From assembly GCA_964419615.1 (NCBI GenBank), contig CAYQPU010000018.1, forward strand, positions 1 to 31,674: a DNA stretch of 31,674 nucleotides, given 5' to 3'. Source of the DNA: an uncultured Methanosarcinales archaeon. Its GTDB lineage: Archaea > Nanobdellota > Nanobdellia > Woesearchaeales > JAGVZT01. Below the pieces are notes generated by a model. That model was given only the letters and a program-made list of their open reading frames with translations, had not been told where the DNA came from and did no database searches. Each line of letters opens with the position of its first letter. Position 1 is the first letter of the stretch. Shown piece after piece: positions 8,783-31,674 of this stretch. The position numbers and the translations under genes were made by a program.

Positions 8783-8813
8783 TGAGATTCAAACAACTAA
8801 AAGAGGGAGTGTA

Positions 8814-13849: not shown

Positions 13850-14146
13850 TTACGTTGTTGACAACAAATCATCATCTGGTTCTCTTGGTTGACAACAAGC
13901 TTGTCCAGGATGATCTTTGGCATCAGTAACTCCAATTATTCTGGATTCTGTTTCTGAATCGCATTCACTTTTCCATTGAGCACCTGGAAAATCTGTTTCA
14001 CAATCTCTTGAAGTATTAGAGCCAAACATATCTGTGAACCAACCCATTCTGCCAGTAAACACCATAATAAGGACAAACAACACTAATATGACAATAGCTG
14101 CAATCACAATCGTGTTTAAAGATAAACCTTGAGCTTTTTTTGACAT
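13850..14146 (-). CDS. Type IV pilin-like protein with class III signal peptide and small 4-Cys domain
   Basis: MSKKAQ-GLSLNTIVIAAIVILVLFVL, strong GAGGTGA RBS, C..QW...C...CC domain. Confidence 0.8.
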   Translation of the reverse strand: MSKKAQGLSLNTIVIAAIVILVLFVLIMVFTGRMGWFTDMFGSNTSRDCETDFPGAQWKSECDSETESRIIGVTDAKDHPGQACCQPREPDDDLLSTT

Positions 14147-14239: not shown

Positions 14240-14515
14240 TTAACCTTTGCAACAAAGCATACCTTCAAACTCATCCTGATCTTTTAGCTTCAATGAGATC
14301 CTGCTTTGAGTTGGTTCACAAAACTCTTGCCACTGTCCATTAAAATATTCACACGATTCAATATTCTCTCTTCTAATCAAAGGCTTGCGATAAGTGGGTT
14401 TACTCAAAGCACTCTTTATATCATCAAGATACAGAAAGCCTATTGCCGCAGTCACGAAAACCAAAGTTAGTACAATGGCTGCAATCACAAGCTTGTCAAG
14501 ATCTGGCTCTTTCAT
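14240..14515 (-). CDS. Paralog of the pilin-like protein lacking the KKAQ processing motif
   Basis: LVIAAIVLTLVFV and CEYFNGQWQEFCEPTQSRI...GMLCC align with 13850-14146. Confidence 0.7.
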   Translation of the reverse strand: MKEPDLDKLVIAAIVLTLVFVTAAIGFLYLDDIKSALSKPTYRKPLIRRENIESCEYFNGQWQEFCEPTQSRISLKLKDQDEFEGMLCCKG

Positions 14516-14551: not shown

Positions 14552-16189
14552 CTATAGACTTTTCAATATGTTATTGAAATCAGTTTCTTTAGCTAAAAGT
14601 AATTTAAACTTAGGTAATTCTTTTAATCCAGGATTAACCTTTATACTATCAACATCCACAATCTCTTGTTTTGTTTTGTAATACAAAGTATTTGGTCTAA
14701 ATCCAGATTCTTTAAAACGCTTCTCCCAGGTTAAAACCTCAGATGCTGGTGCTGCAAAAAACCCACCCTGAATATCCAGTTTAATATCTGTCTTAAAAAA
14801 TCCATCCATATTATTGATTATTTTTCTATAGTATTTCTTTGCTTTTTTAATAAGTTTAATCAACTGCAAAGCATTAATTTCAGACAATTCATCTGGCGAA
14901 ACTATTTCAACCAGAGTGCTGTAAATCAGACTATTTTTTTCCTTCATCTCCTTAATCAAATTCTTAGCATACTCTTTTGATAGATCATTTTTTTCTTTTT
15001 TGTTAATATTACCATATTTTTCAAGAAGATGTCCAAATTGTTTGTTAATTGTCAAAGTAAACTCACTAAATCTGTACAATTGATTTTCAATCTCTTTTTG
15101 CACACTATTCTTACCAACAATTTTCAACAGATCCTTATTGGTATCCTTGAAAAAGAAAAAATTGTTTTTTGTCACTTCTTCAAGAGCAAAAACAAAAGCA
15201 TAACTTAGTTTATCATTTACCTTGTTGATATCAAAAGGAATATAATTAAGGCTTTGTGGAACAAAGGCAACTGTTGCTTTTGTTGAATGCAACTGAAAAG
15301 TGTTATTTGATCTAATCTCTCTATCTTTAATAATTTGTAAAGCCTCTTTCTTGCTGCAAGAAAAAACCACTAAATTTCCAGACGGAACAATAAGCTTTGG
15401 CTTATCTGTTTGCTCTAACAATAAACTAATATCATCCACAAGATGAATTTGAATTTCTTCAAGCCAATCAATTTCTTTAAAATAATTATCTTCTCTTATG
15501 ACCAATTTATTATGATAACCAATATTTCTTAAGAATCTGTTGTGAAACAAAAATTCTCTTCCAACAAGCATAAATAATTCTTTATACTGATCTTTGATAG
15601 ATTGTTTTTTTCCAAAAAACTTCATTTTTTTTAGGAAACTTCCTTTAAGATTATTGATGATCTTATTTTGTCTCTTCAAATTGGATTGTAATTCTTCTAA
15701 TTCTGAAAGAATCAAACTTATTGTCTCAATTTCAATTAGATTAATACCTTCAATCTGTTCCAGCATTAATCTAACATCATTTAATCCAATAATACCCATA
15801 TTCAAATACTGTTGGATTTCTCCTTGTATGCTTGGAACAAGATCAATTAACCCTTCAATTATTTTATTTGCTCTTTTATTATCAACAACATCTTGTTTCA
15901 AAATCCCTAGAAATCTCTTATCTAAAACCCTATTTGTTTTTAAAATAATTCTTTCATTAGATACAATATTTAATATCTGGTTGTTTATACTATAAAGCTT
16001 TGTTAAATCAGTTCTTGTGTTTTTAAACTTCCCTTCATTACACAAAGAGTGAATTTCCTCAACAAGATCCTTTTTTCTTGATTCTATACTTCGATCAAAG
16101 CTAAGCAGCTTATCTTCTGGTTTATTCTGCTGAATTTTTATATTAATATTCTTTAATCTATTAACCTCTTTTTCCAGCAAAGCTTTCAT
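14552..16189 (-). CDS. Hypothetical protein with N-terminal helical/coiled-coil region and globular C-terminal region
   Basis: 545-aa uninterrupted ORF, K/N/I/L-rich, visibly more AT-rich than its neighbours. Confidence 0.75.
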   Translation of the reverse strand: MKALLEKEVNRLKNINIKIQQNKPEDKLLSFDRSIESRKKDLVEEIHSLCNEGKFKNTRTDLTKLYSINNQILNIVSNERIILKTNRVLDKRFLGILKQDVVDNKRANKIIEGLIDLVPSIQGEIQQYLNMGIIGLNDVRLMLEQIEGINLIEIETISLILSELEELQSNLKRQNKIINNLKGSFLKKMKFFGKKQSIKDQYKELFMLVGREFLFHNRFLRNIGYHNKLVIREDNYFKEIDWLEEIQIHLVDDISLLLEQTDKPKLIVPSGNLVVFSCSKKEALQIIKDREIRSNNTFQLHSTKATVAFVPQSLNYIPFDINKVNDKLSYAFVFALEEVTKNNFFFFKDTNKDLLKIVGKNSVQKEIENQLYRFSEFTLTINKQFGHLLEKYGNINKKEKNDLSKEYAKNLIKEMKEKNSLIYSTLVEIVSPDELSEINALQLIKLIKKAKKYYRKIINNMDGFFKTDIKLDIQGGFFAAPASEVLTWEKRFKESGFRPNTLYYKTKQEIVDVDSIKVNPGLKELPKFKLLLAKETDFNNILKSL

Positions 16190-17089: not shown

Positions 17090-17662
17090 ATGGCTGAGCC
17101 GTCCTACTTTAGAAACGTTATTGAATTTTTCAATGACTTTGGGCTTTATGATGTAATATTACCCTTCTTACTAATATTTACAATTACATTTGCAATCCTT
17201 GATAAGACAAGAGTTTTTGGAAGCGACAAAATTGGAGATAACACATATCCAAAAAAGAGTATCAATGCGGTTGTAGCATTTGTAATAGCATTTTTTGTTG
17301 TAGCATCAGCACATCTAGTAGAAGTTATCACCAAAGTTTCATCTCATGTAGTTATTTTGTTAATGGCATCAGTTTTCTTCTTGACATTAGTTGGATCATT
17401 TATGAAAGAAACAGAAGAAGGAGTTTTTTTACCAGAAGGCTGGCAAGCCCCATTTATGATTGTAATGCTTATTGGAATTGTATTAATATTTTTGAATGCA
17501 CTTGGTTGGCTTGATAAATCATATACTTGGATACAACAGTATTGGTCAAATGACTTTGTCTCAGCTGGATTTTTATTACTAATTATTGCAGGTGTAATGT
17601 GGTTAGTCATGAAAGATAAGAAAGGATCAGGTTCATCTAGTTCAAATGGAGGAGAGGATTAA
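17090..17662 (+). CDS. Multi-TM membrane protein, paralog 1 of 3
   Basis: DVILPFLLIFTITFAILDKTRVFG...INAVVAFVIAFFVV, about 5 TMs, Gly/Ser tail. Confidence 0.8.
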   Translation: MAEPSYFRNVIEFFNDFGLYDVILPFLLIFTITFAILDKTRVFGSDKIGDNTYPKKSINAVVAFVIAFFVVASAHLVEVITKVSSHVVILLMASVFFLTLVGSFMKETEEGVFLPEGWQAPFMIVMLIGIVLIFLNALGWLDKSYTWIQQYWSNDFVSAGFLLLIIAGVMWLVMKDKKGSGSSSSNGGED

Positions 17663-17663
17663 T

Positions 17664-18275
17664 ATGGCAATTAGAAATTTTACTGATGTTTTTTTAAGAT
17701 TAGAATCAATGGGATTAACAGATGTGCTGCTCCCATTTTTATTAATCTTTACAATAGTGTTTTCAGTTCTGCAAAGGGTACACATCTTTGGTGATCGAAG
17801 AAATATTAGTGGTATTGTGGCAGTAATTTTGGCACTGCTTGTGGTAATACCTCATGTGACAGGAGACTATCCTCCTAATGCTGATATTGTTGAAATAATG
17901 AACAAAGCAATACCTAATGTATCAATTTTCATTGTAGCAATAGTTATGTTGTTAATCATGATTGGTGTATTTGGAGTTAATGTAAACATTGCAGAATCAC
18001 CATTAGGTGGGGTAGTGGCTTTAGTTTCATTCTTAATTGTTGGAGCAATCTTTGCCAATAGTGCAGGATGGTTTGGAAACAGAAACTTGCCACCCTGGTT
18101 GTCTTTTTTAGGTGATGCTGACACGCAAGCTCTCATAATTGTATTACTATTCTTTGGTATTATTGTATGGTTCGTGACTAGTGAACCCAATGAAGGATCA
18201 AGTATTGGAGATGGATTAACAGGGATGTTAAGTTCCCTTGGTCAATCTATTCAAAGAAGAGGTAGAAATCCTTAA
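17664..18275 (+). CDS. Multi-TM membrane protein, paralog 2 of 3
   Basis: DVLLPFLLIFTIVFSVLQRVHIFG...ISGIVAVILALLVV. ATG at 17664 follows a GGAGGAGAGG RBS. Confidence 0.8.
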   Translation: MAIRNFTDVFLRLESMGLTDVLLPFLLIFTIVFSVLQRVHIFGDRRNISGIVAVILALLVVIPHVTGDYPPNADIVEIMNKAIPNVSIFIVAIVMLLIMIGVFGVNVNIAESPLGGVVALVSFLIVGAIFANSAGWFGNRNLPPWLSFLGDADTQALIIVLLFFGIIVWFVTSEPNEGSSIGDGLTGMLSSLGQSIQRRGRNP

Positions 18276-18277
18276 AG

Positions 18278-18871
18278 ATGGCGACAATATTTGATATAGG
18301 TTTGTTAGAATATTTCTCACCTATATTCACATTTATTTTCATTTTCGTTGCAATGTTTGGTATACTCCAAGTTGTCAAGATTTTTGGAGAAAAATCACAA
18401 AACCTTAATGCAATAATTGGTTTTTGTATTGCATTATTCCTAACATTTGCAGATAAACCAAGATTAATAGTTAATGGTATGATTCCTTGGTTTGCACTAA
18501 TGTTTGTATTTGGTCTATTTTTACTCACTGCAATGAGATTCATATTTGGTTCTGAAGCTGGAGATTCAATGCTTCTTTCCATGCTTGGTGGGAAGACAGG
18601 AGCAGGTTGGTGGGTTGGTGTTGGAGCAATCATCATCTTAATTGTGGGCATTAGTTCAGTAATCGGTGATCCACTGGCGGATTCGGGAGAAAACGCTACA
18701 ACAGATGCTAGTACAGGTAATAGTGATGGATCCTCAGGGAGTACAGCAACAGATGATTACAGAACAAACGTACTCAACACATTGTATCATCCAAAATTAT
18801 TAGGTGCTGTAGTCCTTTTACTAATTGCACTATTTGCAATATTGTTAATTACCAGAACAGCAAGAGTATAA
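18278..18871 (+). CDS. Multi-TM membrane protein, paralog 3 of 3 (most divergent)
   Basis: PIFTFIFIFVAMFGILQVVKIFGE...LNAIIGFCIALFL, with an S/T/G/D-rich loop before the last TM. Confidence 0.8.
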   Translation: MATIFDIGLLEYFSPIFTFIFIFVAMFGILQVVKIFGEKSQNLNAIIGFCIALFLTFADKPRLIVNGMIPWFALMFVFGLFLLTAMRFIFGSEAGDSMLLSMLGGKTGAGWWVGVGAIIILIVGISSVIGDPLADSGENATTDASTGNSDGSSGSTATDDYRTNVLNTLYHPKLLGAVVLLLIALFAILLITRTARV

Positions 18872-18886
18872 AAATTGAAAATCATC

Positions 18887-19504
18887 TTATACTTTCTTTA
18901 ACTTTTTTGCAACTCTATCCAACTCATTAACATTATCTGAAAACTTTGGTAACATATCTTTAAACACTTTATCCATTGCCTTTATTTGTGAGCCGACATC
19001 TCTTACATTCTTATCATACTCATCAACTCTTCCCAAAACAACCTTGTTAAGCGAATCAAAACTTTCCTTTAAATCACCAACTCTTTGTTCCATTGCACTA
19101 ATTCGTGCTTCAGCTCGATCTTTCCACTTAACAATCTTATTAACGCTTTGCAGCAGTTCATCCCATAATTCATCAATTATAGACTCAGCAATCTCCTCAA
19201 ATCTGTCCATATCATCAACAGGAACTTGTGAAGATCCACTAAAAGCAGGTGCAGGCTGCTGCTGTTGCTCAAATTGTTGAGGTGGCGGAAATGCTTGAGC
19301 AGGTTCTGGCACTGGTTCTATTGGTTGAGGTCCAGCATTTACCAAATCTGCTTGATTCATGGCATCAAATATTTGATTTGAGTTAAAACCATCTCTTTGC
19401 AGAGTCTGGATTATCTGGTTATCAGATAAACCTTGTTTTCTCATTGTACCAACTTGCTCAGTAGGCAAACCCTGATTAGAACTCTTTTTTCCACCAAACA
19501 CCAT
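18887..19504 (-). CDS. Cytoplasmic protein: small helical N-domain, P/Q-rich linker, long coiled coil
   Basis: MRKQGLSDNQIIQTLQRDGFNSNQIFDAM, then PEPAQAFPPPQQFEQQQQP, then heptad-rich C-terminus. Confidence 0.8.
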   Translation of the reverse strand: MVFGGKKSSNQGLPTEQVGTMRKQGLSDNQIIQTLQRDGFNSNQIFDAMNQADLVNAGPQPIEPVPEPAQAFPPPQQFEQQQQPAPAFSGSSQVPVDDMDRFEEIAESIIDELWDELLQSVNKIVKWKDRAEARISAMEQRVGDLKESFDSLNKVVLGRVDEYDKNVRDVGSQIKAMDKVFKDMLPKFSDNVNELDRVAKKLKKV

Positions 19505-19561
19505 TTTTAATGTCCTTTATATTGCACAATTTTTAAAAGTTTCGGAATTAATCCAATATAT

Positions 19562-19963
19562 TCATTTATCCAACATATCTTTTACAATCCTTTCAACTTG
19601 TTCTTGAGTTACAAATTTAACTGGTTGCCAATACCCCAAATATTTTTCCAAAGTCTTGATATCTTCTGTTCTTGCACATTTTTTTAACTCTGCAATCACC
19701 AACCCAACATTCTCATTAAGCTTTCCAATTGTATGCTTGAGTTCATCAATCTCTGACTTATTGGCTCTAAGTTCCTTATGAATTTTTTTGTGACTATCTA
19801 GCATATTCTCATCAGTTAATTGCATTTTCTGATGAAGAGTCTTGTATCTATCCTCAAGTAACCTAAGTCTGCGATTGGCTTCTGCAACCTGCCCGGCAAC
19901 CTCATTAATATTAGGTCCAGTTGGTTGTTGTTCTGTTTTATGAATCAAGGGGTTATTTTTCAT
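19562..19963 (-). CDS. Coiled-coil protein, divergent from the secretion ATPase
   Basis: 133 aa, heptad pattern, ends LEKYLGYWQPVKFVTQEQVERIV. Confidence 0.8.
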   Translation of the reverse strand: MKNNPLIHKTEQQPTGPNINEVAGQVAEANRRLRLLEDRYKTLHQKMQLTDENMLDSHKKIHKELRANKSEIDELKHTIGKLNENVGLVIAELKKCARTEDIKTLEKYLGYWQPVKFVTQEQVERIVKDMLDK

Positions 19964-20046
19964 TTGTTATGATCCCTCTAAGCGCGAGCAAAATTGGTTT
20001 TTTATTTTCCGTTATATTTTTATACATTGGAATATTTAATATTTTT

Positions 20047-20082
20047 AATACTCCAGATTTATATTAAATCTTTGTGAGTATT
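20047..20082. promoter_or_regulatory. Nested palindrome over a TATA-like element in the divergent promoter
   Basis: AATACTC-C-AGATTTA-TAT-TAAATCT-TTGT-GAGTATT, with outer TTGGAA (20027) / TTCCAA (20082-20087). Confidence 0.45.
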
Positions 20083-20105
20083 TCCAAGTGGTGTTGGTCA
20101 AAAAT

Positions 20106-22397
20106 ATGTCCACTAATAAAAACCAAGAAAGAGGTGTATTTAGTTCTCAAATAGTCCAAGAAGGAGAAGATAGAACTTTAAGAATTGATTGTTCAAAATG
20201 CACTTTTCTACCTTCAATAGAAGATAATCCTCTTGTGATGTCTAAAACAATTGAACTACTAGTTGAAAACAAAACTGTCACTAAAATCGTATTCTATCAA
20301 CAAAGAGACTTTGTTTATGAATTTGAACAAACAAGAATGTTGATGCAAATTGCAGGTGTGTATGATAAATTAGTAAGAGAAAAAAATCTTCTTGGTCACC
20401 AAAAATTGGGATTTTCTCAAGGTTATACCAAAGGATTTAATCAAAGATTTGCAGAAATTCATAATATTAATTACAACCTTGTCAAAAGTGATCCAATCGG
20501 AGCTTATGTTGAGCTAAAACGTCTTTTAAGAAGAGAAAAATCAGCATTAGAAGCTGAGATGGATCCAATATATGCTCAAAGTTTGGAAAGGTACATTGCT
20601 CTACTTGAATCAGTAATTGACATGCTAGGTGATATTACAATTATTAAACTAGCAAAACCATACCTTGCAGGATACCATCCTGGAGACAGATCAATATATG
20701 GTAGGATAATCAACCCAGTTATCAAGCCTGATTTTATGTTCACCAGGTTAATGGCTAAGTATCCTGCTGAAGCAGAAGAGCTAGCCACATACACATTTGG
20801 AAATTCTGAAGTCATGATCTTTCGACTTCCTGGTTCAATTCAATATCTATATCATCTTATCCCTCCAGAATTCCAATTATCTGAAGAAAAATATGAGATC
20901 CTTGATACAGCAAGATCAATTATTGCTGAACACAAACCAAAAAAATCAGAATTTATTGATCCAGAGAGAATGAGGGCTGTTTTTTACAACGTTGGTAAGG
21001 ATCTAATTGAAGAGTTAGTCACCAGTAGAAAATTAAGTTTAAGAAGCAAAGAAATTGATGAACTAACAAGGATCCTTGTAAGATACACTGTTGGATTTGG
21101 TTTAATCGAAGTACTCTTATCTGACCCAAAGGTTCAAGATATAACAATCAATTCTCCAATGGGAAGAACTCCTATATTTATTGTGCACCAAGACTTTGAT
21201 GATTGTGTAACAAACATAATTCCTTCAAGACCTGAAGCTGATTCATGGGCATCAAAGTTAAGAATGATCTCAGGAAGACCGCTTGATGAGGCTAATCCAA
21301 TACTTGACACTGAACTGGAACTTCCAAAAGCCAGGGCAAGAGTAGCTGTAATCTCTCCCCCGTTAAATCCGTCTGGTTTGGCATTTGCACTTCGAAGACA
21401 CAGAGACAAACCATGGACGCTGCCACTATTTATGCATAATGGAATGATAAGTCCTCTTGCAGCAGGAGTCTTAAGCTTCATTATTGACGGGTCAAGAACA
21501 ATGCTTGTTGCAGGAACCAGAAGCGCTGGAAAAACCTCTTTGCTTGGGTCATTAATGATAGAAATAATGAGAAAATATCGAATTATAACAATTGAAGATA
21601 CTCTGGAATTACCCTCTACTGCAATGAGAAAATTAGGCTATAATATTCAGCCAATGAAAGTTGCTAGTGCAATGACAAAATCAACATCAGAAGTCTCTGC
21701 AGATGAAGGAATAAGAACCACACTTAGAATGGGGGATTCATGCTTGATTGTAGGAGAAGTTAGAAGCACAGAAGCAGCAGCACTTTATGAAGCAATGAGA
21801 GTCGGTGCTTTAGCAAACGTTGTTGCAGGCACAATTCATGGCGACTCTCCATACGGTGTTTATGATAGAGTTGTAAATGATCTAAAAGTTCCAAAAACAA
21901 GTTTCAAAGCAACTGACGTTATTGTTGTAGCAAATCCAATTAAAAGTGCAGATGGTCTTCATAGATGGAGAAGAATTACACAAATTACAGAAGTTAGAAA
22001 GCATTGGGAAAATGACCCATTATTAGAACATGGTTTTGTGGATTTGTTAAAATATGATTCCAGAAGCGATCAATTAGAACCTACAAACGACTTAATCAAC
22101 GGTGAAAGTGAAGTTCTAAAATCTATAGCAGGAAATGTTAAAGAATGGGCTGGAAACTGGGATGCTGTTTGGGACAACATACTTCTAAGAGCTAATATCA
22201 AAAAAGCCTTGGTCGATTATGCTGAAAAATCCAAAAACTTTGCTCTCTTAGAAGCACCATTTGTAATAAAATCAAATGATGAATTTCATATGCTTTCAGA
22301 TACAGTAAAAGAAGAAGTAGGAACTATTGATAGTAAAATAATCTTTTCCAGGTGGAAAGACTGGTTAATTTCAGAAATAAAAAAACAGAATATCTAG
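20106..22397 (+). CDS. Type II/IV secretion ATPase (VirB11/TadA/CpaF/ArlI family) with long N-terminal extension
   Basis: Walker A GTRSAGKT, TIEDTLEL Asp box, LRMGDSCLIVGEVRS Walker B, TIHG His box, N-terminal CSKC. GTG at 20088 is the alternative start. Confidence 0.9.
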   Translation: MSTNKNQERGVFSSQIVQEGEDRTLRIDCSKCTFLPSIEDNPLVMSKTIELLVENKTVTKIVFYQQRDFVYEFEQTRMLMQIAGVYDKLVREKNLLGHQKLGFSQGYTKGFNQRFAEIHNINYNLVKSDPIGAYVELKRLLRREKSALEAEMDPIYAQSLERYIALLESVIDMLGDITIIKLAKPYLAGYHPGDRSIYGRIINPVIKPDFMFTRLMAKYPAEAEELATYTFGNSEVMIFRLPGSIQYLYHLIPPEFQLSEEKYEILDTARSIIAEHKPKKSEFIDPERMRAVFYNVGKDLIEELVTSRKLSLRSKEIDELTRILVRYTVGFGLIEVLLSDPKVQDITINSPMGRTPIFIVHQDFDDCVTNIIPSRPEADSWASKLRMISGRPLDEANPILDTELELPKARARVAVISPPLNPSGLAFALRRHRDKPWTLPLFMHNGMISPLAAGVLSFIIDGSRTMLVAGTRSAGKTSLLGSLMIEIMRKYRIITIEDTLELPSTAMRKLGYNIQPMKVASAMTKSTSEVSADEGIRTTLRMGDSCLIVGEVRSTEAAALYEAMRVGALANVVAGTIHGDSPYGVYDRVVNDLKVPKTSFKATDVIVVANPIKSADGLHRWRRITQITEVRKHWENDPLLEHGFVDLLKYDSRSDQLEPTNDLINGESEVLKSIAGNVKEWAGNWDAVWDNILLRANIKKALVDYAEKSKNFALLEAPFVIKSNDEFHMLSDTVKEEVGTIDSKIIFSRWKDWLISEIKKQNI

Positions 22398-22410
22398 TGA
22401 GCAGATTAAA

Positions 22411-23934
22411 ATGAGCAAAAAATCTCAAATAACTTACTTTATAATCATTGCAATAGTGGTTTTAATATTATTTTTATTTTTAGTATATTTTAGGGCTAAA
22501 TCACAAACACCTGATTCCACAGGTCCAAATGCAAACAAACCTTTTTTAGAAGAACCAATCATACTTTATGTTGAGTCATGTCTTACAAATTCAGTTGAAG
22601 AAGCTCTAGCAATTATGGGTATGCAGGGAGGTAGAATTTACGAACATCAGGTAAAAGGAACATCTGGATACCTCGGTCCTCCACTTAGAGATTATGCAAT
22701 AAGCATAATACCTTATGAATACAATGGAGTAATTCAAAATGTCAGTTATGGGATCTATGCAATACCACCTGTATCATCGGACTACCCTTATTTTGGAAAT
22801 TTAGATCCCAATAATAATTTTCAATTTGGTGTAAATGGACTTGCTCCATTATGTGATAATCAAGGGGCAAATGCATGGGATCTTTCTGAATCACAGTATT
22901 CTTGTGTACAATATGACTTAAGTGACAGCAAGCATTCAATTCAAGAATATGTGGAAAAATATGTGGAAACAGACATAGTGAAGTGTGCAAATTTTAGCCA
23001 ACTTGACTTGGATTATAATATTGAAACAAAAGATGTTAAGGCAACAATCTTGTTTGGAGACGAAGATGTTCATGCAACAGCTGAATTTGACATAATCCTA
23101 AAACATAGTGGAGAATCAATCACTAAAATCGAGAAATTTTCAAAAATCATTAAAATCAGATTTAAAAGAATTTATGAGTTAGCATATTTCCTAATTGAAG
23201 AAGAAAACTCAAATTTGTTCTTTAACATGTCAAATGAAGAAACACTCCAAAACCTGCAAAGATGTCCGAATAAAGACAAAATTCACTTTACTGAAAAATG
23301 TCTAAAACCTGATATGAGTGTAAAACTAATTAATGAACCATGTAAAACAAATTCCATGTGCACCCAGTCTGAAAACTCAGATATAATCTTTATCCAAGAC
23401 AACAAATCTCTTATCAAGAAAACACCATTTGTTTTTATGTTTGGTGTGAAAAACAGAGGACCAGCCATAGACTACATTGATGAAAGCATAGATCCATCAG
23501 CAAATTACTATTTTTACCTAAAAACAAATTATGGAGTATATCCTTCAGATATTTATTATCTGGCTAGCACAAACCAACCAGACAGTTTTTTTAACATTGC
23601 AGTTGATGCAGGTAAAACAATAACAGTGTATCCTAGAGCAGTAGATCCTGATGGAGATGACATAATATATAATTATCTTGGTTGGAAAACACCAACGCCG
23701 ATAGCTGATCAAAATGGAACTAAATACAAAGACATTCTTTCTGGAAAAAGTGATTCAACAGTATATGGTGGAGGAAGCCAAAATAAATGGGAAATGTCCA
23801 CAATGTACTCTAGAACCAAAAAAGATGCAACATTAAAAACAAATGCATCTGACTCAGGTTATCACTGGATTAGAATAGAAATTTCAGATGGTCAGTACTC
23901 CGATTATCAGGATATAGCTATTTTAACTGAGTAA
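22411..23934 (+). CDS. Large pilin-like protein with class III signal peptide and C-terminal Ig/cadherin-like segment
   Basis: MSKKSQ-ITYFIIIAIVVLILF, several Cys pairs, PRAVDPDGDDIIYNY and GYHWIRIEISDG. Confidence 0.75.
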   Translation: MSKKSQITYFIIIAIVVLILFLFLVYFRAKSQTPDSTGPNANKPFLEEPIILYVESCLTNSVEEALAIMGMQGGRIYEHQVKGTSGYLGPPLRDYAISIIPYEYNGVIQNVSYGIYAIPPVSSDYPYFGNLDPNNNFQFGVNGLAPLCDNQGANAWDLSESQYSCVQYDLSDSKHSIQEYVEKYVETDIVKCANFSQLDLDYNIETKDVKATILFGDEDVHATAEFDIILKHSGESITKIEKFSKIIKIRFKRIYELAYFLIEEENSNLFFNMSNEETLQNLQRCPNKDKIHFTEKCLKPDMSVKLINEPCKTNSMCTQSENSDIIFIQDNKSLIKKTPFVFMFGVKNRGPAIDYIDESIDPSANYYFYLKTNYGVYPSDIYYLASTNQPDSFFNIAVDAGKTITVYPRAVDPDGDDIIYNYLGWKTPTPIADQNGTKYKDILSGKSDSTVYGGGSQNKWEMSTMYSRTKKDATLKTNASDSGYHWIRIEISDGQYSDYQDIAILTE

Positions 23935-23963
23935 ATCTAGCAGTAAATATAGTTGAAGAATTC

Positions 23964-24863
23964 TCAATTCCAATGATAATGCAAATTGGAGAAGGTATCT
24001 TCTGCTTGATCTTTACCATCAACTCCAACAACAATTGATTTAATCTGGGGAAAACTTTTAATAAAAGAAATTGATTTCTCTAAATCAAATCCTTCAGGGC
24101 TCGTCAAGATTTTGTAGGCGGTTATTGGTTTTGTTGAGTCTTTAATTGTTTTGAGAGCTATATTAAAATTTGGAAAAACATAAGATCTGTTAATACACAA
24201 CCAACTTCCAGCTACATCTAATTTTCTAGCAGTTGGTAATGAAAGTCCACCACCTTCACACATTAATAAAGGTATAAAACTTAATTCCCTAGTACTCTGA
24301 ATTTCCTTTTCAATAATGTCTATTCTATTGTGTAAAACCAGTGAACTGATACCCAAATTTCCAACTAAACAGAAATCACAAAAATCTTTGAATTTAATAA
24401 GCTGAGATTTGTGTTCATTACTATCAAGTCTGAAATTAGCAATTTCTTTTGAAGAAAAAATATCATCAGAAACTCGTTCAAACCAATAGCATTTATCCTT
24501 AATTTTTTGATCTATTTTCAATGAAGCATAATTTGAAAGCTTTTTCAGGTTTTTTTGAATCCATAATGATTCATTACCAATATAATAACTCTTTTGCCAG
24601 GAAGGATTAGCAATACAAACAATATCTGGAAATTCCATTTTGAATTCTCTCAAAACTTTAATTAAAACTGGATGAGGGGACATACTGAATCCTCTCACTC
24701 CTTTGGAATAAGCAGTCGTTATAGCCTGTCTGTAATCAATTTCCCTTTCCTTATCGGAGTCGTATTTTTTACACTTATTAAACCATCCTGTAAAATGATC
24801 TTCCCCCATGATGACAGAAGGGTATAGTTTGTTTTCAATATCAATAAAGGGGAATTCTTTCAT
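23964..24863 (-). CDS. Hypothetical soluble protein, possibly a TIM-barrel (aldo/keto-reductase-like N-terminus)
   Basis: 299-aa ORF. PSVIMGEDHFTGW...AITTAYSKGVRGF and ending IKSIVVGVDGKDQAEDTF suggest a beta/alpha barrel. Fold call is weak. Confidence 0.6.
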   Translation of the reverse strand: MKEFPFIDIENKLYPSVIMGEDHFTGWFNKCKKYDSDKEREIDYRQAITTAYSKGVRGFSMSPHPVLIKVLREFKMEFPDIVCIANPSWQKSYYIGNESLWIQKNLKKLSNYASLKIDQKIKDKCYWFERVSDDIFSSKEIANFRLDSNEHKSQLIKFKDFCDFCLVGNLGISSLVLHNRIDIIEKEIQSTRELSFIPLLMCEGGGLSLPTARKLDVAGSWLCINRSYVFPNFNIALKTIKDSTKPITAYKILTSPEGFDLEKSISFIKSFPQIKSIVVGVDGKDQAEDTFSNLHYHWN

Positions 24864-25026
24864 AATTATTCCAAAAAAGTCTTTATTATTTAATAATATT
24901 GATGAAGAAAACTAAACCTTGTATCTCAATTATTTCACACTTTATATATCACAAAGCTTTAAAATTAGAAAATTTATTAAGTAACCTATATTAAAATAAT
25001 ATATAAAAATCAGAGATTGAGTTTTT

Positions 25027-28000
25027 ATGAAAAAAAAAGGGTATGTAGTAGGGCTAATTTTGCTAATTTTCATACTTTTGATTCAATTTGCACCAAATTC
25101 AACTGTTAAAGCTCAAAGCACAACTGGATGCTGTTCAAATCCTAGTACAACGATCTATGGTGCTTTCTATAACTCATACTGTTCAGACACAGAAGGCACA
25201 ACATTAAGTCAAAATGAATGTTGCCCTGCTGATGGAACCTATCACAATGAATCCGCAATATACCCTAAAAACCAGACAGATTGTCAATTAAACTATTGGA
25301 GAGATGGAGCTTGCGTTACCCTACTTCAATGCCAGGGCGGCTGTTGTTATGATAACACCACTGTTAACAAATGTGGTGAAAACACTCAATTTCAATGTTT
25401 GAATGCCAGTGAATCAAATCTGTGGGAACCAGGATATAATGTGGTTGACAGATTAAACAACAATCCTTGTTACAAAGATGAACTTGATTCATCAGGTTTT
25501 TACAAAGAAAAAATAGAAGAATGTCCAGATATTGATCCTTGTACTGGAAATGGCATAACAAAAGATGAATGCCTTGAAAAAAGTTATCAAAGTAACTCAT
25601 GCGTGTATTGCCCAGAGGCTGCAGCTTCAGGTGGAGGAAGCTGTTTTACAGAATGTAGCCATGGTTGTATGGCTTACTCAACAGACTTTGATGGAGATAA
25701 TATTTGTGATGCGGATTCTCAAAACTATGACATCTGTAGAACAGATGAACTAATCTGTGAAAGGCCTGTTTTAGAAGATTGTAGATGTGGAACAGAACTA
25801 GCTGAAAAAGATGAATATTGTTGTATGATCCGGAGCCAAGCTTATCCAACTCAAAACTCTTGTACTGGAGATTGTCATCCTGATTGCTATGTAAATTCAA
25901 CAATACTAAGCACAGAACAAGATTATGGCATCGATTTTGGTGGAGTGTACTCTTATTGTTACTGTGGTGGAACACTGGTTAATTTTGAAAATGAGGGTTT
26001 TTGTTGTGATTTTGGTAATGAATTTAATAATTATACAAACGAAAAATGTTATCAAATTGGTTCAGTAGAAGGAACTGTTACTGATCAAGATACAGCTGAT
26101 CCTATTCCAGGAGCACAAGTAAGTGTATCAGTAAAAACAACTGCAACAGATGATAGCGGTTATTATATGATTAAAGATATAATTGTAGGAAACCATGATT
26201 TGGAAGTTTCTTCAGTAAACTACAAAACAGCAACAAAAACAATTACACTAACAACAGATGGAGAAACAATAACCGAGAACTTCCCATTGGAACCAACAGT
26301 TCCAAGATGTGAAAATCCTTTTGTGACTCCACCTGACATCAACCCTTACTTAGAATGCAGTAATGAACTTGGCACACTAACTGTCAGATGGACTGATCCA
26401 TGTCCAGAAACAATAATGGGTTTTTATGTATACAGAAACACACACTTACAAGCATTTACCAAAAACACATTTTTCATTGATGACACATTTCCTTGGTCAA
26501 CCTCAGTCACATACAAAGTTGGAGTAATGTATGACTATGGCAAAACCTACAATTACACACTTCCTGTTTTCTTAACCGGAGATCCCACCTGTATTGACAA
26601 AGGTGGGCAAGAAATGTGTATTAATAACTCAAGATATGAATGTACTGGATGCTTTGCCTTGGGTCTAAGACAGAACTGCGGAGCAAGTACATGTGTTGGT
26701 CCAAGCAGTAATGGGAAAACTCTTTGTAAACCAGAAGCTTCATGTAAAGATTTTGGTGATCCATTTGGTGCATTCTACACTTCAGATCAATGTTTAGGTG
26801 TTCAACTCGATCCGCCATTTAGTGGATTTTATTCCAATCCTTGTTATTTTGATTATTCCCTAACTCCAATTGACTATTGTTATAGCTGTGCAGCTGACAC
26901 AACATGTTATGATTACAAAAGTAAAGCATCATGTGAAATTGATAACTGTGTGGTTGGAGGATCAGATAGGTGTCAGTATTTGGAAACAAATGCTGAATTA
27001 GGTAAAGGAATATGTTTTTCAGAAAATTCAGAAGTATCTGATTGTGGTCTGTGTAATGATCCTTTTATGGACTGTAGTGCACAGCAGTGTAGCATGCTTG
27101 GAAGCTGTTATCTTTCAGGATCGCAATGTGAAGGTTGTGATGGTACGGTAAGTTGTGAAGATTATGAAGATGAAGTTTCATGTACTGGTGGTCAAGAATT
27201 CCAAGTATTAAACCACCTTTGTGATGCATATAAAACAAGAACTTACTCAGAAGATGCTTGTGGTGTTGGTTATTGTCAATGGAGATCTAATCAGTGTATC
27301 AGAGCACCAGAAGCACCAACAGTTGGATTCAGTGAACCCGAAACAACAGCTCACTTTAGTCCACCTGGCCTAATGACAAACGGTACAAACATAACATTTA
27401 GTGTAGATCCTATTGAATCTATCACATATGCTTGTATTGATAAAGATGGATTATGCTGTCCAGATACAGAATTAAATCCTAAGCTAATGATATTGCCGGC
27501 AGGTTATTCTCTTGGTGAAGGATGGTATACCTTAAGTTATTATTCAAGAGACTTTTATGGAAACTATGAACCAGTCAATAAAGAAGCATTTTACTTTGAC
27601 GGACTTCCTCCTCAAATAAATATCAATTACACAGTTAGTAATGGTTCTGAGCTAAAATCAAATGTTGAAATTGACATTAGCTTAAATGAAATGGCACAGT
27701 GTAGGGAAAACATACTTCCTATGGATTATGATGATCCAAACACAATCCATGCCCAACAAGGCTTTTCCAGATTATTTAGAGCTAAGTACTTTGATTTATA
27801 TGATGGAACTCATCTGTATAACATAAGCTGCACCGATATGTCTGGAAATGAAGTAACAATTTATCAAAACATAAATATTGACAGATTAGCATTGATTTTT
27901 AATGAAGAACCAGTTGGTGGTGTATACACTGGTGGTCCTGTAACTTTCAGAGTAAAAACATCCAAACAAGCAAACTGTAGATACGCAAGAGAAATTAATG

Positions 28001-30990
28001 GAAAAATTGTTGGTAACTATCAAACCCTTCCAGAAAAGTCTCACGAAACTACTCCATTTGATCATTATATTTATGAAAAACTAATTACAGAAACAATATC
28101 TGATACTTTCTTTTATAATGTAAAGTGCGATCAAGTTAATGGAGATCTTGAAGACAATGCTAAACTGTACTTTAGCTATGATAACCTCGGACCTAGAACA
28201 AAGCTTGTGTACACTTGGAACGCTGGTCAGGAAGATTATGTCTCATCAAACTGGTATCCTGAAAATGCTGATTTTGACTTTTCTTGTGCTGATGAACCTG
28301 AATTATTAGGGTTTGGATGCAAGCAAACCAAATATTGTGTTGGAGATGATTGTACACCTGACTCAGTAGGTCTTTCTATTGTGGTGCCAGAATCAAGATA
28401 CTATTGTTACAGATCCGAAGACTTAGGTGGAAACCTCGGTGAAACAACTTGCAGTCACATAAAAATAGATAATACTGTTCCTACAAAACCAAAGGTAAAC
28501 GACACAAGCGAAGATCGCTATAATCCAGAACACACATTTAGACAAAATAAGTTAAGAGCATGGTTTAGTTCATATGACAACGAATCAGGAATTGACCATT
28601 ATGTTTATCAAATTGTATCTGATAAAGGAGATGTAGTTGTAAAATGGTCACAGACCAAAGAACATGAGGATTGGTTCTGGATAACTGATTCAAACTCCAA
28701 TTGGGTTGAAGATGAAAATGAAGATCCAATTCTACTAGAAAATAATACCAAATATTATATCAAAGTATTTGCAGTTGACAAAATAGGTAAAAAAAGTGCT
28801 AATGTAACCAGTGATGGTATAACTGTAGATACAAGCAAGGTTAAGGCAACTTGTACTGATGGAAAACTAAATGGAGATGAAACCAATGTTGACTGTGGAG
28901 GATCCTGTCCAGCCTGTTCCACAAAGCCAAAATACTGTGGAGATAATGAAGTAAACAGGGCAAGAGAAGAATGTGATGGTTCTGATCTTGAACTAAAAGC
29001 GTGTTCAGACTTTGATGATTATGATGAAGGAGTGGGTAGACTAAAATGTCATTCAGATTGTACATTTGATTTCTCAGGATGTTATCCAAATAATCCTAAA
29101 TGTGGAGACGGTGTTGTTAACAGAATAAAAGAAGATTGTGATAAGTTGGATCTTAAGGGATTAAACTGTCATGACTTTGGTTATGGTGGAGGAACCTTAA
29201 AATGTGATAGCAGCTGTGACTTTGACACAGGCAGTTGTACTTATCCCAAAAATGATGTATGTCAAGATGGAGATAAGAACAGAGAAGAAGAGTGTGACTC
29301 ACCAGACCTAGCAAACAAAGATTGTACTGATTTTGATGATTACCTTGGAGGAGACCTTGACTGTACTTCGGACTGTTTATTTGACACAACTGATTGTGAC
29401 GGTCTAGAAGATCCAAAATGTGGAGATGATGACATCAACCAAATAACTGAAGTCTGTGACAAAGATGATCTTGCAAACAGAGATTGCGAATACTTTGGCT
29501 ATGCTGAAGGAACTTTGTCATGTAAATCTAATTGTGAATTTGATTTTTCAGGATGTGTTATTGAGGAAATTGATTGTGACGATGACGATGATTGTGAATC
29601 TGATTTTTGCCATCCTGTAAGTAATATTTGTATGAGTCCATCCTGTTCAGACGGATTTGAAAACCAAGATGAGACTGATGTTGACTGTGGAGGAATCTGT
29701 TCAACCAAATGTGAAAAAGGAGAAGGATGTCGCAATGACTACGATTGTGAAGACCGTTATTGTAATCAAAGAACTGGAAAATGTGAAGGTGAACAAGGAG
29801 ATCACTGTCTAAATGGTAATTATGACCAAGTCACTGAAACTGATATTGACTGTGGTAAAGAATGTCCTGCATGCTCACCTGGAAAAATGTGTGAAGAAGA
29901 CTTGGACTGTGAAAGTGGAAAGTGTGAAAATAATGAATGTGCTGAACCAACTTGTTTTGATACTATAATGAACAGTCATGAATCAGACATTGATTGTGGG
30001 GGATTATGTCCAGGTTGTGATGAAGGAGAAAAATGTTTTACAGACACAGACTGTCTTTCAGGTAATTGTAAATCAAGCATTTGTTCCAAATCTGACGATG
30101 CAGATAATGATGGTTTACCTGATTGGTGGGAAGACCAGTACTGTAATGGAGATTGTGATCCATATGCAGATCCAGACAAAGATGGTCTAACTAATTTTAA
30201 TGAATTCATTAACAATGCAAATCCATTTAATGATGACACAGATGGTGATGGATATAAGGATGGAAAAGAAGTAGACAAAGGCTACCTTCCTGATGATCCA
30301 GACTCACATCCAAGAAGTAGTTTCTTATTGATATTTATCCTGTTCTTGCTTGCATTGGCAATCCTAGGATTAGTTGTTTATACATTAAAAAATAAGAAAA
30401 AACCAAAACCACCAAAACCAGTATCAAAACCACCAAAAACATTACCTCCTAAACCTTTAGGTAAACCTACCTCTGCAACAAAACTAGAACAAATAGCAAA
30501 ACCCCACATTAACCGAACAAAAGACAAATATGCAAAAAGAAGACATATGTTTAATGAATTTGGAAGCACTACACCAACACTTGATAAATTAATCCAGAAA
30601 CAAGGTAAGGGATATGATCTAACTGGTGATGTTTGGAATAGACTAAACACAATGAATGTTGTAGAAATGCAAAGAATGAACCTTTCTCCACAGCAAGTTC
30701 ATAATCAATTAGGCAAACTATATGGGAAAAAATTAAGTAAAGAATCCTTGAATGTTTTATCAAAACTAGTAGAATCTAATTATGTAACAAAAGATAACCT
30801 TGTTGCAGAGTTCTCAAAACTATCAAAAGAAGGTAAATTTAGTCTGGCTGTTCTAAAAAAAGTATTGTCAAGTATGAAAAAGAACAAGCACATTTCCAAA
30901 AAAGAATTAGATGCTCATCTTGGTAAACTGCATGAACAAAAAGTCATAACTAAGAATGATAAAGAGGATATTCTACATTATTTAAAATGA
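25027..30990 (+). CDS. Giant Cys-rich secreted, membrane-anchored surface protein (adhesin-like)
   Basis: Signal peptide (TVKA-Q), Cys-rich N-terminus, carboxypeptidase-regulatory-like domain (GTVTDQDTADPIPGAQV), Ig/FN3-like domains, Cys repeats, DxDxDG motifs, TM, PPKP linker, basic cytoplasmic tail. Confidence 0.9.
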   Translation: MKKKGYVVGLILLIFILLIQFAPNSTVKAQSTTGCCSNPSTTIYGAFYNSYCSDTEGTTLSQNECCPADGTYHNESAIYPKNQTDCQLNYWRDGACVTLLQCQGGCCYDNTTVNKCGENTQFQCLNASESNLWEPGYNVVDRLNNNPCYKDELDSSGFYKEKIEECPDIDPCTGNGITKDECLEKSYQSNSCVYCPEAAASGGGSCFTECSHGCMAYSTDFDGDNICDADSQNYDICRTDELICERPVLEDCRCGTELAEKDEYCCMIRSQAYPTQNSCTGDCHPDCYVNSTILSTEQDYGIDFGGVYSYCYCGGTLVNFENEGFCCDFGNEFNNYTNEKCYQIGSVEGTVTDQDTADPIPGAQVSVSVKTTATDDSGYYMIKDIIVGNHDLEVSSVNYKTATKTITLTTDGETITENFPLEPTVPRCENPFVTPPDINPYLECSNELGTLTVRWTDPCPETIMGFYVYRNTHLQAFTKNTFFIDDTFPWSTSVTYKVGVMYDYGKTYNYTLPVFLTGDPTCIDKGGQEMCINNSRYECTGCFALGLRQNCGASTCVGPSSNGKTLCKPEASCKDFGDPFGAFYTSDQCLGVQLDPPFSGFYSNPCYFDYSLTPIDYCYSCAADTTCYDYKSKASCEIDNCVVGGSDRCQYLETNAELGKGICFSENSEVSDCGLCNDPFMDCSAQQCSMLGSCYLSGSQCEGCDGTVSCEDYEDEVSCTGGQEFQVLNHLCDAYKTRTYSEDACGVGYCQWRSNQCIRAPEAPTVGFSEPETTAHFSPPGLMTNGTNITFSVDPIESITYACIDKDGLCCPDTELNPKLMILPAGYSLGEGWYTLSYYSRDFYGNYEPVNKEAFYFDGLPPQININYTVSNGSELKSNVEIDISLNEMAQCRENILPMDYDDPNTIHAQQGFSRLFRAKYFDLYDGTHLYNISCTDMSGNEVTIYQNINIDRLALIFNEEPVGGVYTGGPVTFRVKTSKQANCRYAREINGKIVGNYQTLPEKSHETTPFDHYIYEKLITETISDTFFYNVKCDQVNGDLEDNAKLYFSYDNLGPRTKLVYTWNAGQEDYVSSNWYPENADFDFSCADEPELLGFGCKQTKYCVGDDCTPDSVGLSIVVPESRYYCYRSEDLGGNLGETTCSHIKIDNTVPTKPKVNDTSEDRYNPEHTFRQNKLRAWFSSYDNESGIDHYVYQIVSDKGDVVVKWSQTKEHEDWFWITDSNSNWVEDENEDPILLENNTKYYIKVFAVDKIGKKSANVTSDGITVDTSKVKATCTDGKLNGDETNVDCGGSCPACSTKPKYCGDNEVNRAREECDGSDLELKACSDFDDYDEGVGRLKCHSDCTFDFSGCYPNNPKCGDGVVNRIKEDCDKLDLKGLNCHDFGYGGGTLKCDSSCDFDTGSCTYPKNDVCQDGDKNREEECDSPDLANKDCTDFDDYLGGDLDCTSDCLFDTTDCDGLEDPKCGDDDINQITEVCDKDDLANRDCEYFGYAEGTLSCKSNCEFDFSGCVIEEIDCDDDDDCESDFCHPVSNICMSPSCSDGFENQDETDVDCGGICSTKCEKGEGCRNDYDCEDRYCNQRTGKCEGEQGDHCLNGNYDQVTETDIDCGKECPACSPGKMCEEDLDCESGKCENNECAEPTCFDTIMNSHESDIDCGGLCPGCDEGEKCFTDTDCLSGNCKSSICSKSDDADNDGLPDWWEDQYCNGDCDPYADPDKDGLTNFNEFINNANPFNDDTDGDGYKDGKEVDKGYLPDDPDSHPRSSFLLIFILFLLALAILGLVVYTLKNKKKPKPPKPVSKPPKTLPPKPLGKPTSATKLEQIAKPHINRTKDKYAKRRHMFNEFGSTTPTLDKLIQKQGKGYDLTGDVWNRLNTMNVVEMQRMNLSPQQVHNQLGKLYGKKLSKESLNVLSKLVESNYVTKDNLVAEFSKLSKEGKFSLAVLKKVLSSMKKNKHISKKELDAHLGKLHEQKVITKNDKEDILHYLK
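28876..30018 (+). repeat. Four dispersed E[TS][ND][VI]DCGxxC motifs
   Basis: ETNVDCGGSC, ETDVDCGGIC, ETDIDCGKEC and ESDIDCGGLC. Confidence 0.85.
28936..29556 (+). repeat. Four tandem ~52-aa Cys repeats (CxDxxxN...ExCDxxDL...C..F....G.L.C...C.FD...C)
   Basis: Units begin CGDNEVN, CGDGVVN, CQDGDKN and CGDDDIN, alternating DFDDY and FGY types. Confidence 0.85.
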
Positions 30991-31013
30991 GGGACTTTAA
31001 AGGAAGATCCAGA

Positions 31014-31478
31014 ATGAAAAAAGCCCAGATTCAATCACAGGTGTTAGTATATGTATTAGCTCTTTTAATTGTAGGTCTTGTATTGATTTATGGATATCAA
31101 TCGATTCAAAAAATGAAAGCAAATGCACAAATTGCAGAATTTATCAAATTTCAGGATACTGTGAAAAAGTCTGTAAACAGCCTTAAGTATGATTATGGTT
31201 CTGTTAAAAAAAGAACCTTTTATGTTCCTGGTGATTACAGAGAAGTTTGTTTTGGAGTGCCAGGTCAGACATATCCAAGTACAGTAAATAAGTATCCCAT
31301 TATTAAAGACAGTTTGGTATCAGAGGCAGGAAGAAATGTATTTCTTTATCCAGATGGAATTGAATCTTTTAATGTAACAGATATTGTTGTTCAAGACAAT
31401 TTCAAATGCTATAATGTAGTTGGCGGAAAAATAACAGTAACTTTAGAAGGAATGGGAAGCAGGGTTAAAGTATCATAA
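31014..31478 (+). CDS. Pilin-like protein with class III signal peptide
   Basis: MKKAQ-IQSQVLVYVLALLIVGLVLIYGY. ATG at 31014 preferred over 30987. Confidence 0.8.
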   Translation: MKKAQIQSQVLVYVLALLIVGLVLIYGYQSIQKMKANAQIAEFIKFQDTVKKSVNSLKYDYGSVKKRTFYVPGDYREVCFGVPGQTYPSTVNKYPIIKDSLVSEAGRNVFLYPDGIESFNVTDIVVQDNFKCYNVVGGKITVTLEGMGSRVKVS

Positions 31479-31479
31479 A

Positions 31480-31674
31480 ATGTCAAAAAAAGGGGGAATA
31501 GAGGTCCAGTTTAATTGGATATTTGTTTTTATAGCAGGCGCTTTAATATTTACCCTAATTCTTGGTTTTGCAAACAGGCAAGCTAAATCTGCAGATCAAA
31601 GAATTGCAGCTCGACTTGTTAGGGACTTGAACACAGTTATAACCCAATCCTCTGTTTCAACAGGAAAATCGGAT
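31480..31674 (+). CDS. Pilin-like protein, truncated by the window end (not in the ORF track)
   Basis: Hand translation MSKKGG-IEVQFNWIFVFIAGALIFTLILGFANRQAKSADQ..., open to the end of the window. Confidence 0.75.
   Translation, partial: MSKKGGIEVQFNWIFVFIAGALIFTLILGFANRQAKSADQRIAARLVRDLNTVITQSSVSTGKSD

Follow-up and report, generated by a model that had tools for sequence, protein, structure and literature searches.

A probable pilus-like type IV filament assembly system typical of Nanoarchaeota, with its platform gene displaced from the ATPase locus in a Woesearchaeales genome

We analyzed the whole of contig C18 (31,674 bp, hereafter the window) of a 1.48-Mb, 99% complete Woesearchaeales genome (G000), which encodes a long secretion ATPase surrounded by three paralogous membrane proteins (the trio), two coiled-coil proteins (CC1 and CC2), several pilin-like proteins and a giant Cys-rich surface protein. 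Our results indicate that the window, together with a gene on a second contig of the same genome (C40), probably specifies a pilus-like type IV filament (T4F) assembly system that is typical of the Nanoarchaeota lineage and most parts of which are encoded in the window. The Nanoarchaeota (among them Woesearchaeales, Pacearchaeales-type lineages and Nanoarchaeum) have for the most part not been cultivated, and a life attached to other cells is assumed for them. The original prediction, made from the letters of the window, had pointed to an ATPase lacking an adjacent platform gene and had offered two explanations: either this gene lies elsewhere, or the trio and the coiled coils form an alternative base for an attachment/uptake apparatus.

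The first of these explanations proved correct. As the original prediction had it, no TadC/ArlJ/PilC-type protein is recognisable in the window, and no T2SSF protein was found on contig C18. In relatives that carry the long ATPase alone, the only T2SSF signals, all weak, sit in an open reading frame (ORF) of 720-755 codons immediately downstream, and a polytopic ORF of this size abuts the ATPase gene in most of the gene maps of 15 relatives. Its ortholog in G000 is an intact gene for a 711-aa protein, 52-54% identical to the proteins of the relatives, that lies at C40:3077-5212(-), in the middle of a 10.6-kb contig. Four lines of evidence identify this protein as a platform of the PilC/TadC type in which two highly divergent T2SSF domains are fused. 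Both its halves align by hhalign with the canonical TadB/C profile of the same genome (N-terminal half 86.8%, E 4e-6; C-terminal half 65%, E 6e-5). Pfam T2SSF is matched below threshold by 7 of the 41 family members (best 21.4 bits, cut-off 25.2). Residues 441-574 of its AlphaFold model (pLDDT 73) superpose by VIA-align on the PilC N-domain 2whn (Z 11.0, root-mean-square deviation (rmsd) 2.4 Å, 103/103 residues), and the top structural matches of the model among 48,161 chains were 2whn, EpsF 2vma (Z 10.9), the PilC model 3jc8, SpoIIIAB and TcpE. Finally, a single JGI record names a member of the family TadB, the remaining listed records being "hypothetical" or nameless. The wide VIA-align search was decisive here, as other comparisons were close to silent: Foldseek with the whole 711-aa model returned a weak top match only, to 3jc8 (E 0.07), the platform profile matched no PDB sequence, and hhalign detected no similarity between the two halves of the protein.

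We then asked how often the platform and the ATPase genes are neighbours. Among the 38 genomes with both genes (G000 and 37 relatives), the platform gene abuts the ATPase gene in 27, is one gene away in 2 and is unlinked in 9, namely G000 to G005 (the genus of the window and its nearest family members), G014, G032 and G039. In G007, a member of the same family, the adjacency is retained. A contig scan, whose best 80 matches were all loci of the Woesearchaeota/Nanoarchaeota type, supplied 80 further named loci, of which evaluable subsets (60 or 70) were used for linkage counts; the same arrangement was present in 60/70 of them. Within the clade of G000, the platform gene of G003 is found 6 kb upstream of the ATPase gene, past the trio, and in MAG795, a record from the same genus, the locus-tag numbers of platform and membrane paralog 1 differ by 74. 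Since adjacency prevails in most relatives and is lost in the nearest kin of G000, the separation is derived and clade-specific: an ATPase without an adjacent TadC is a real feature of a small clade around G000, and not a property of the machine. The vacated slot is occupied in this clade by P507, a class-III-signal protein with orthologs in the same genus only, and by the cassette of the giant protein. Calls of an "ATPase without platform" in DPANN genomes can thus arise from Pfam overlooking a divergent T2SSF protein combined with local rearrangement.

Given the ortholog on C40, the second explanation, in which the trio and coiled coils would provide a different base for the apparatus and the ATPase would need no platform of the TadC/PilC type, is unneeded and unsupported, and we consider it highly improbable. 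Such a base would be compatible with the lack of a T2SSF gene on contig C18, with the conserved position of the trio and coiled-coil genes near that of the ATPase, and with a trio that fits no known family. Against this, an intact platform ortholog is present in the same genome and abuts the ATPase in most relatives, and the trio is unrelated to the platform (hhalign 0.3%). Moreover, relatives cluster the trio, the coiled coils and the platform together, hence the trio does not replace the platform. What is left is an archaeal type IV filament system in a variant form that occurs throughout the phylum and is poorly annotated.

Other genes were noted around the platform family. A second platform paralog, 30% identical, is present at G002:C12:30621-32636(-), G014:C11:22597-24654(-), G004:C3:106080-108089(-) and G006:C105:2065-4083; in G002 and G014 it stands in convergent orientation directly behind the ATPase gene, the orthologous platform gene being 12-19 kb off. 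G000 itself lacks such a second copy. On C40, divergently from the platform gene, C40:5437-6573(+) codes for a 378-aa secreted protein with a C-terminal transmembrane (TM) anchor and the signal MKKILWLLIAILTIQTG, and is followed by a small toxin-antitoxin-like gene pair (C40:6605-7185).

The motor candidate is a full secretion ATPase with additional parts. It matches Pfam T2SSE (PF00437) with 55 bits (cut-off 24.9), and its core matches afGspE (102 bits), CpaF (86 bits) and FlaI (62 bits) in the PDB. In the alignment, the catalytic boxes are all intact (Walker A GTRSAGKTS, Asp box ITIEDTLELP, Walker B LIVGEVRS, His box GTIHG). The NCBIfam FlaI/TadA models cover residues 304-710 only, and comparison with two ordinary paralogs of the same genome delimits extensions of about 230 residues at the N-terminus and about 90 at the C-terminus. 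These paralogs, on C8 and C25, complete the set of three T2SSE-type ATPases of the genome; the window ATPase is 24-28% identical to them and about 250 aa longer. In each of their loci, a gene for an ATPase of 502-527 aa precedes a pair of single-domain T2SSF genes. Across the order, orthologs of the window ATPase show 53-88% identity over their full length, and 295 of 301 phylum genomes contain a match to its first 304 residues, nearly always in single copy and in genomes down to 0.5 Mb. The set of 301 includes the unpublished genomes G262 and G263; neither these two nor G006 are needed for any specific claim. One ATPase-platform pair is nearly universal in the phylum. About 250 extra N-terminal residues with a CxxC had been announced by the original prediction; the extension stands, at about 230 residues conserved in the phylum, and the CxxC (CSKC) is present but is not a conserved feature. 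The idea of a zinc site was discarded because the motif varies among orthologs. A likeness of the N-terminal extension to PilB3_N (ESM Atlas score 0.78) was too weak to be retained and found no support in hmmscan.

Candidate components for the supply and processing of filament subunits are present as well. A PibD-type prepilin peptidase was sought in the rest of the genome, and an A24 peptidase is encoded at C15:25038-25379 (61.4 bits). A motif scan for K/R-G/A/S followed by a hydrophobic helix retrieved four genes of the window, those of a 98-aa protein, P507, P163 and a partial protein at the right end of the contig; the last three correspond to the pilin-like genes first recognised, and all have class-III-like N-termini. 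The 98-aa gene, with its textbook class III signal, and its 91-aa paralog, 3 kb upstream of the trio, were not part of the original prediction and are probably pilin genes, the 91-aa ORF as called showing no clear K/R-G/A motif at its N-terminus. The N-terminus of the 98-aa protein (MSKKA/QGLSLN...) is of the same type as that of a G268 gene (RG/QGLSVNAII) located between the platform and A24 peptidase genes (L045:16939-17319), and as those of genes downstream of the platform in G138 and G206. G268, a 0.46-Mb genome whose sole ATPase match at E<=1e-10 is of the long type, carries a complete version of the locus, with the order TM, TM / CC1, CC2 / ATPase / platform / six small class-III-signal genes / Peptidase_A24 (51.7 bits). 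P163 belongs to a family present in 37 of 41 relatives (searches that include G006), where its genes are mostly scattered; in G004 and G016 the distance to the ATPase gene is no more than about 3 kb, and in G000 and G001 it is greater, with both genes in one cluster. This scatter agrees with published observations that pilins are dispersed in Nanobdellati and the ATPase and platform genes close together (PMC13705601). For the ATPase of clade 4/4F, cognate pilins were not identifiable in nanoarchaea (PMC4858521); because pilin-like genes and peptidase share a locus in G268, compact genomes of this kind supply pilin candidates for that clade.

In the assembly system that we favour, the motor would be an ATPase of the FlaI/TadA family and of the hexamer type, extended at both termini by phylum-specific segments, and its membrane partner would be the fused double-T2SSF platform of about 710-750 aa, encoded here on C40. 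The substrates would be the class-III-signal proteins (the 98-aa pilin, P163, P507 and the partial last gene product), which the C15 peptidase would cleave before their assembly into a surface filament. In the lineage of G000, this filament probably carries, or works with, the giant Cys-rich anchored protein as an adhesin. The coiled-coil proteins may be a cytoplasmic scaffold or regulator that docks on the ATPase extensions, and the trio may be a membrane scaffold around the platform.

Several points weigh against a pilus-like system. The pilin calls are made on the N-terminal motif alone, with no Pfam matches, and the ATPase/platform loci of C8 and C25 could serve these pilins instead. The platform is 50-60% identical across an order, a degree of conservation unusual for pilus machinery that may point to a more central function. 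The model of the trio protein has no fold match (best Z 6.5) and no recognisable family. Because the trio and the ATPase, like all the parts, are near-universal in the phylum, co-occurrence is uninformative, and the argument for a functional link therefore relies on the conserved neighbourhood, the sole link, which is lost in about 40% of loci. Lastly, in the nanoarchaeal genome G090 the ATPase and platform genes are 115 kb apart, and an A24 peptidase was searched for and not found.

The case of G090, a single contig of 490,885 bp, deserves attention. Its long ATPase (714 aa, 257003-258718 on C1) is 44% identical to that of the window; the genome also has a 611-aa platform homolog and two weak matches to the trio family, and no coiled-coil genes adjoin the ATPase gene. 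Given the separation of the two genes and the negative peptidase search, a pilin-independent role fits this genome equally well. By position, we infer that the long ATPase of G090 is the clade-4 gene of N. equitans (GI 41615211), since the spacing of its two ATPase matches, 218 kb, fits the gap of 246 gene identifiers between the two N. equitans GI numbers. A 433-aa gene downstream of the ATPase gene was considered as a platform candidate and rejected: its SGGFDS motif reads as that of a ThiI-like PP-loop enzyme, and the platform hidden Markov model is silent on it.

These observations bear on an alternative in which the ATPase-platform pair is a repurposed T4F derivative that builds no ordinary pilus, and serves the whole phylum instead as a machine for housekeeping or symbiosis, of which the trio and coiled coils would be specific structural parts, for example in the export or display of a large surface protein, in DNA or lipid uptake, or as a cell-to-cell bridge. 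Such a machine would account for a near-universal, single-copy ATPase kept in very small genomes, for its very high sequence conservation, for its persistence in G090, and for the cognate pilins that could not be named in nanoarchaea (PMC4858521). Subsystem 4D, thought to be a repurposed T4F remnant (PMC13705601), provides a precedent, and in the G000 lineage the gene of a giant anchored protein stands beside that of the ATPase. We nevertheless regard this alternative as unlikely. Clusters of pilin-like class-III-signal genes come right behind the platform gene in G268, G138 and G206, joined in G268 by the A24 peptidase gene; three genomes that have this ATPase-platform pair only (G031, G034 and G038) retain an A24 peptidase; and the ATPase motifs, like the two domains of the platform, are those usual for filament assembly.

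The trio and the coiled-coil pair are the least familiar parts of the locus. That the three multi-TM ORFs are paralogous, as first proposed, is shown by BLAST (E 1e-14 to 1e-3) and confirmed by jackhmmer. They have no Pfam or NCBIfam match, and their ESM Atlas matches are to unnamed Woesearchaeota/Nanobdellota clusters only; the AlphaFold model of paralog 1 has a pLDDT of 81. The profile of the membrane paralogs matches 297 of the 301 phylum genomes, usually in 2-3 copies. Both coiled-coil proteins of the original prediction lack TM segments and give generic coiled-coil matches. CC1 consists of a small N-terminal helical domain (QG.S.NQI.Q.LQ..G..S.QIFDA.NQA), a P/Q-rich linker and a C-terminal helical/coiled-coil domain, and CC2 has a conserved C-terminal motif, W.P..FVT. 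Searched member by member against Pfam, CC1 and CC2 hit scattered coiled-coil families only, and the small N-terminal domain of CC1 resembles DUF7626 in 8 of 14 members, below the cut-off. In public records the platform, the membrane paralogs and the coiled-coil partners are hypothetical proteins, and the open-access text of the literature searched holds no description of the trio or of the coiled-coil pair. These five genes (trio, CC1 and CC2) make up a concrete, conserved and unassigned accessory set. The suggestion that the neighbourhood is widespread and uncharacterised in DPANN accordingly holds for the phylum Nanoarchaeota/Nanobdellota, on the counts given above for the ATPase and trio families.

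Are these genes parts of the machine or bystanders? The order TM-TM-(TM) / CC1 CC2 / ATPase / platform recurs in families of Woesearchaeales and in other orders (G206, G138, G268), and G267 has the complete module except for the trio. The divergent CC2/ATPase arrangement is also kept in the gene maps of relatives, and CC1 orthologs adjoin the ATPase gene in 13 of the 15 loci of relatives that were inspected manually. Coiled-coil genes are found upstream of the ATPase gene in 43/60 named loci and at least two membrane paralogs in 36/60, across several orders, with neither in 17/60. A hand tally of 57 genomes (hand tallies exclude G006 and G263) places paralog 1 within 7 kb of the ATPase gene in 34, on the same contig and 9-13 kb off in 2, and on another contig in 21, some of which reflect assembly breaks. 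Of the two observations that the original prediction named as speaking against it, a cognate tadC outside the window and a trio without co-occurrence, only the first was made: a tadC-like gene exists on C40, and the genes of trio and ATPase are in fact co-localised.

It is possible, though to our minds doubtful, that inherited gene order, and not function, keeps unrelated housekeeping genes beside that of the ATPase, these being the trio and, with lower likelihood, the coiled coils, and that the cassette of the giant protein is an unrelated insertion. The trio family is near-universal regardless of linkage, lies far from the ATPase or on other contigs in about 40% of genomes (21 + 2 of 57), is not upstream in 24/60 loci and has no sequence or fold link to T4F components; the giant/P507 cassette, for its part, is confined to the nearest relatives. 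On the contrary, the same gene order is found in several orders of the class, where the ATPases are 52-62% identical to that of the window, and the trio never stands upstream without the coiled coils. Conservation of a neighbourhood over such distances in small, rearranging genomes usually means functional coupling. As a more speculative extension of the filament-assembly interpretation, we tentatively suggest that the trio could form a membrane collar, and the coiled coils a cytoplasmic ring on the ATPase extensions, of a Nanoarchaeota-specific, T4F-derived core machine behind host contact. Were this true, the machine would represent a distinct, undescribed T4F architecture, more than another pilus locus.

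Two further observations concern the loci that were compared. Those without the divergent coiled-coil pair often have an RHH-like ORF upstream of the long ATPase gene (10/19 loci): a conserved 44-51-aa ORF (MKKPISATIDEELIKWI...YRNKSHLIEIAL) immediately upstream in L053, L055, L056, L064, L072, L073, L085, L086 and L091, and an unrelated one in L103. The long ATPase thus seems to have two alternative upstream arrangements. In addition, some locus-bearing contigs at 59-68% identity (L050, L051, L054, L057 and others; P0132) are titled "uncultured Methanosarcinales archaeon", "Armatimonadota bacterium" or "Dehalococcoidia bacterium", and are probably mislabelled or mis-binned.

Among known systems, archaeal clade 4/4F is probably the group to which the window ATPase belongs. 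Subclade 4F ATPases often have an extra variable, Cys-rich N-terminal domain and are associated with a TadC-like platform (Makarova et al. 2016, PMC4858521). Haloarchaeal 4F loci include an intracellular coiled-coil component, arCOG07564, and in a supplementary tree the clade-4 ATPase of N. equitans stands beside the Thermoplasmatales and Halobacteria 4F group (PMC4858521). The 4F pilin families are arCOG02981 and arCOG10216 (Makarova et al. 2016, PMC4858521; Sivabalasarma & Albers 2026, PMC13705601). The system described here resembles 4F in its secretion ATPase with an N-terminal extension, its TadC-like platform and the coiled-coil genes of the locus, CC1 and CC2 being comparable to arCOG07564 in general type. 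It differs in that the N-terminal extension is not Cys-rich and has one unconserved CxxC, in a platform that falls below the Pfam cut-off, and in the trio of polytopic paralogs, which is undescribed for 4F.

The archaellum (ArlI/FlaI with ArlJ/FlaJ) also presents similarities: among NCBIfam models, FlaI scores highest with the ATPase (128 bits), two T2SSF domains are fused in the platform as in ArlJ, and cytoplasmic coiled-coil accessories (ArlX or ArlCDE in the archaellum) are encoded beside the motor. We rejected an archaellum identity, the FlaI score being far below the cut-off of 550 and no archaellin being found in the whole genome (Arch_flagellin best 13.3 bits, cut-off 29.5). Within the locus, the only part of the genome considered for these families, genes for ArlH, ArlF and ArlG are missing, and FlaC_arch matches of the coiled coils were dismissed as noise (2/15 members, E 0.011). 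The Epd/Tad-like system 1 follows the same basic plan, with an ATPase, a platform, class III pilins and an A24 peptidase. The C8 and C25 loci fit the published layout of archaeal system 1/Epd-like loci (PMC13705601), with two platform genes (TadB and TadC) and an ATPase of about 500 aa, whereas the window ATPase (769 aa) and the fused 711-aa C40 platform, with their other accessories, do not. As for bacterial PilB-PilC and GspE-GspF, crystal structures of PilC and EpsF match the platform in its second cytoplasmic domain (Z about 11, rmsd 2.4-2.9 Å); identities are 13-16%, however, and here an archaeal single membrane goes without PilMNOPQ, the extensions and accessories being unrelated.

The giant protein was correctly described at the outset as a 1987-aa anchored Cys-rich protein: it contains 140 Cys residues, a signal and a TM segment. 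It has one CarboxypepD_reg domain (346-421) and a cytoplasmic tail of about 200 aa, and its signal, MKKKG/YVVGLILLIF, is ambiguous between Sec and class III. Homologs occur in the nearest relatives only; those of G001 (identity 58%) and G004 each have a P163-type gene after them. In the G004 cassette (L035, G004:C1, 42-9342) the order is giant protein, P163, 335-aa, 152-aa and 150-aa proteins, the last four with class-III-like N-termini and the last three encoded at L035:7426-8433, 8435-8893 and 8890-9342. The partial gene that ends the window is a homolog of the 335-aa gene, and the G004 cassette probably mirrors what lies past the right end of the window. Since pilin-like genes come after it in G001 and G004, we conjecture that the giant protein may be a pilus-associated adhesin.

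Table 1. Features of the window considered in this work (positions on contig C18; a slash stands within each signal sequence)
Position	Strand	Feature	Remarks
13850..14146	-	98-aa small pilin-like protein, Cys-containing head, candidate major pilin	class III signal MSKKA/QGLSLNTIVIAAIVILVLFVLI (QGLSLNTIVIAAIV); no Pfam match
14240..14515	-	91-aa paralog of the 98-aa pilin-like protein	C...C...CC head pattern in common, from translations
17090..17662	+	membrane paralog 1, 190 aa, ~5 TM	N-terminal motif F.GVI.FF..IG.YDVVLPFLLVFTIVFAILEKT
17646..18275	+	membrane paralog 2, 209 aa	17-nt overlap with paralog 1
18278..18871	+	membrane paralog 3, 197 aa	start 2 nt past paralog 2
18887..19504	-	CC1, 205 aa, cytoplasmic	generic coiled-coil matches, no TM
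19562..19963	-	CC2, 133 aa, cytoplasmic coiled coil	divergent to ATPase; no TM
19964..20087		124-nt divergent intergenic region	common to the CC2-CC1 and ATPase transcription units
20088..22397	+	long FlaI/TadA/GspE-family secretion ATPase, 769 aa	Pfam T2SSE, NCBIfam FlaI/TadA
22411..23934	+	P507, 507-aa class-III-signal protein	N-terminus MSKKS/QITYFIIIAIVVLILF (MSKKS/QITYF...)
23964..24863	-	299-aa soluble protein, no family	no homolog in other loci
25027..30990	+	1987-aa Cys-rich, Asp-rich surface protein, candidate adhesin	N-terminal signal, TM 1766-1784
30987..31478	+	P163, 163-aa pilin-like protein	probable start 31014, MKKA/QIQSQVLVYVLALLIV
31480..31674	+	5' part of a class-III-signal gene	ends at contig edge; MSKKGG/IEVQFNWIFVFIAGALIF

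The layout of the window (Table 1) bears out the description of the ATPase stop (TAG-TGA), followed 13 nt later by the start of a class III signal protein, P507. The 299-aa gene on the opposite strand is probably a passenger that lies outside the machine. A 545-aa Lys/Glu/Asn-rich soluble protein is encoded at 14552-16189(-), between the pilin-like genes and tatD; it has no Pfam match and no homolog in the other loci examined.

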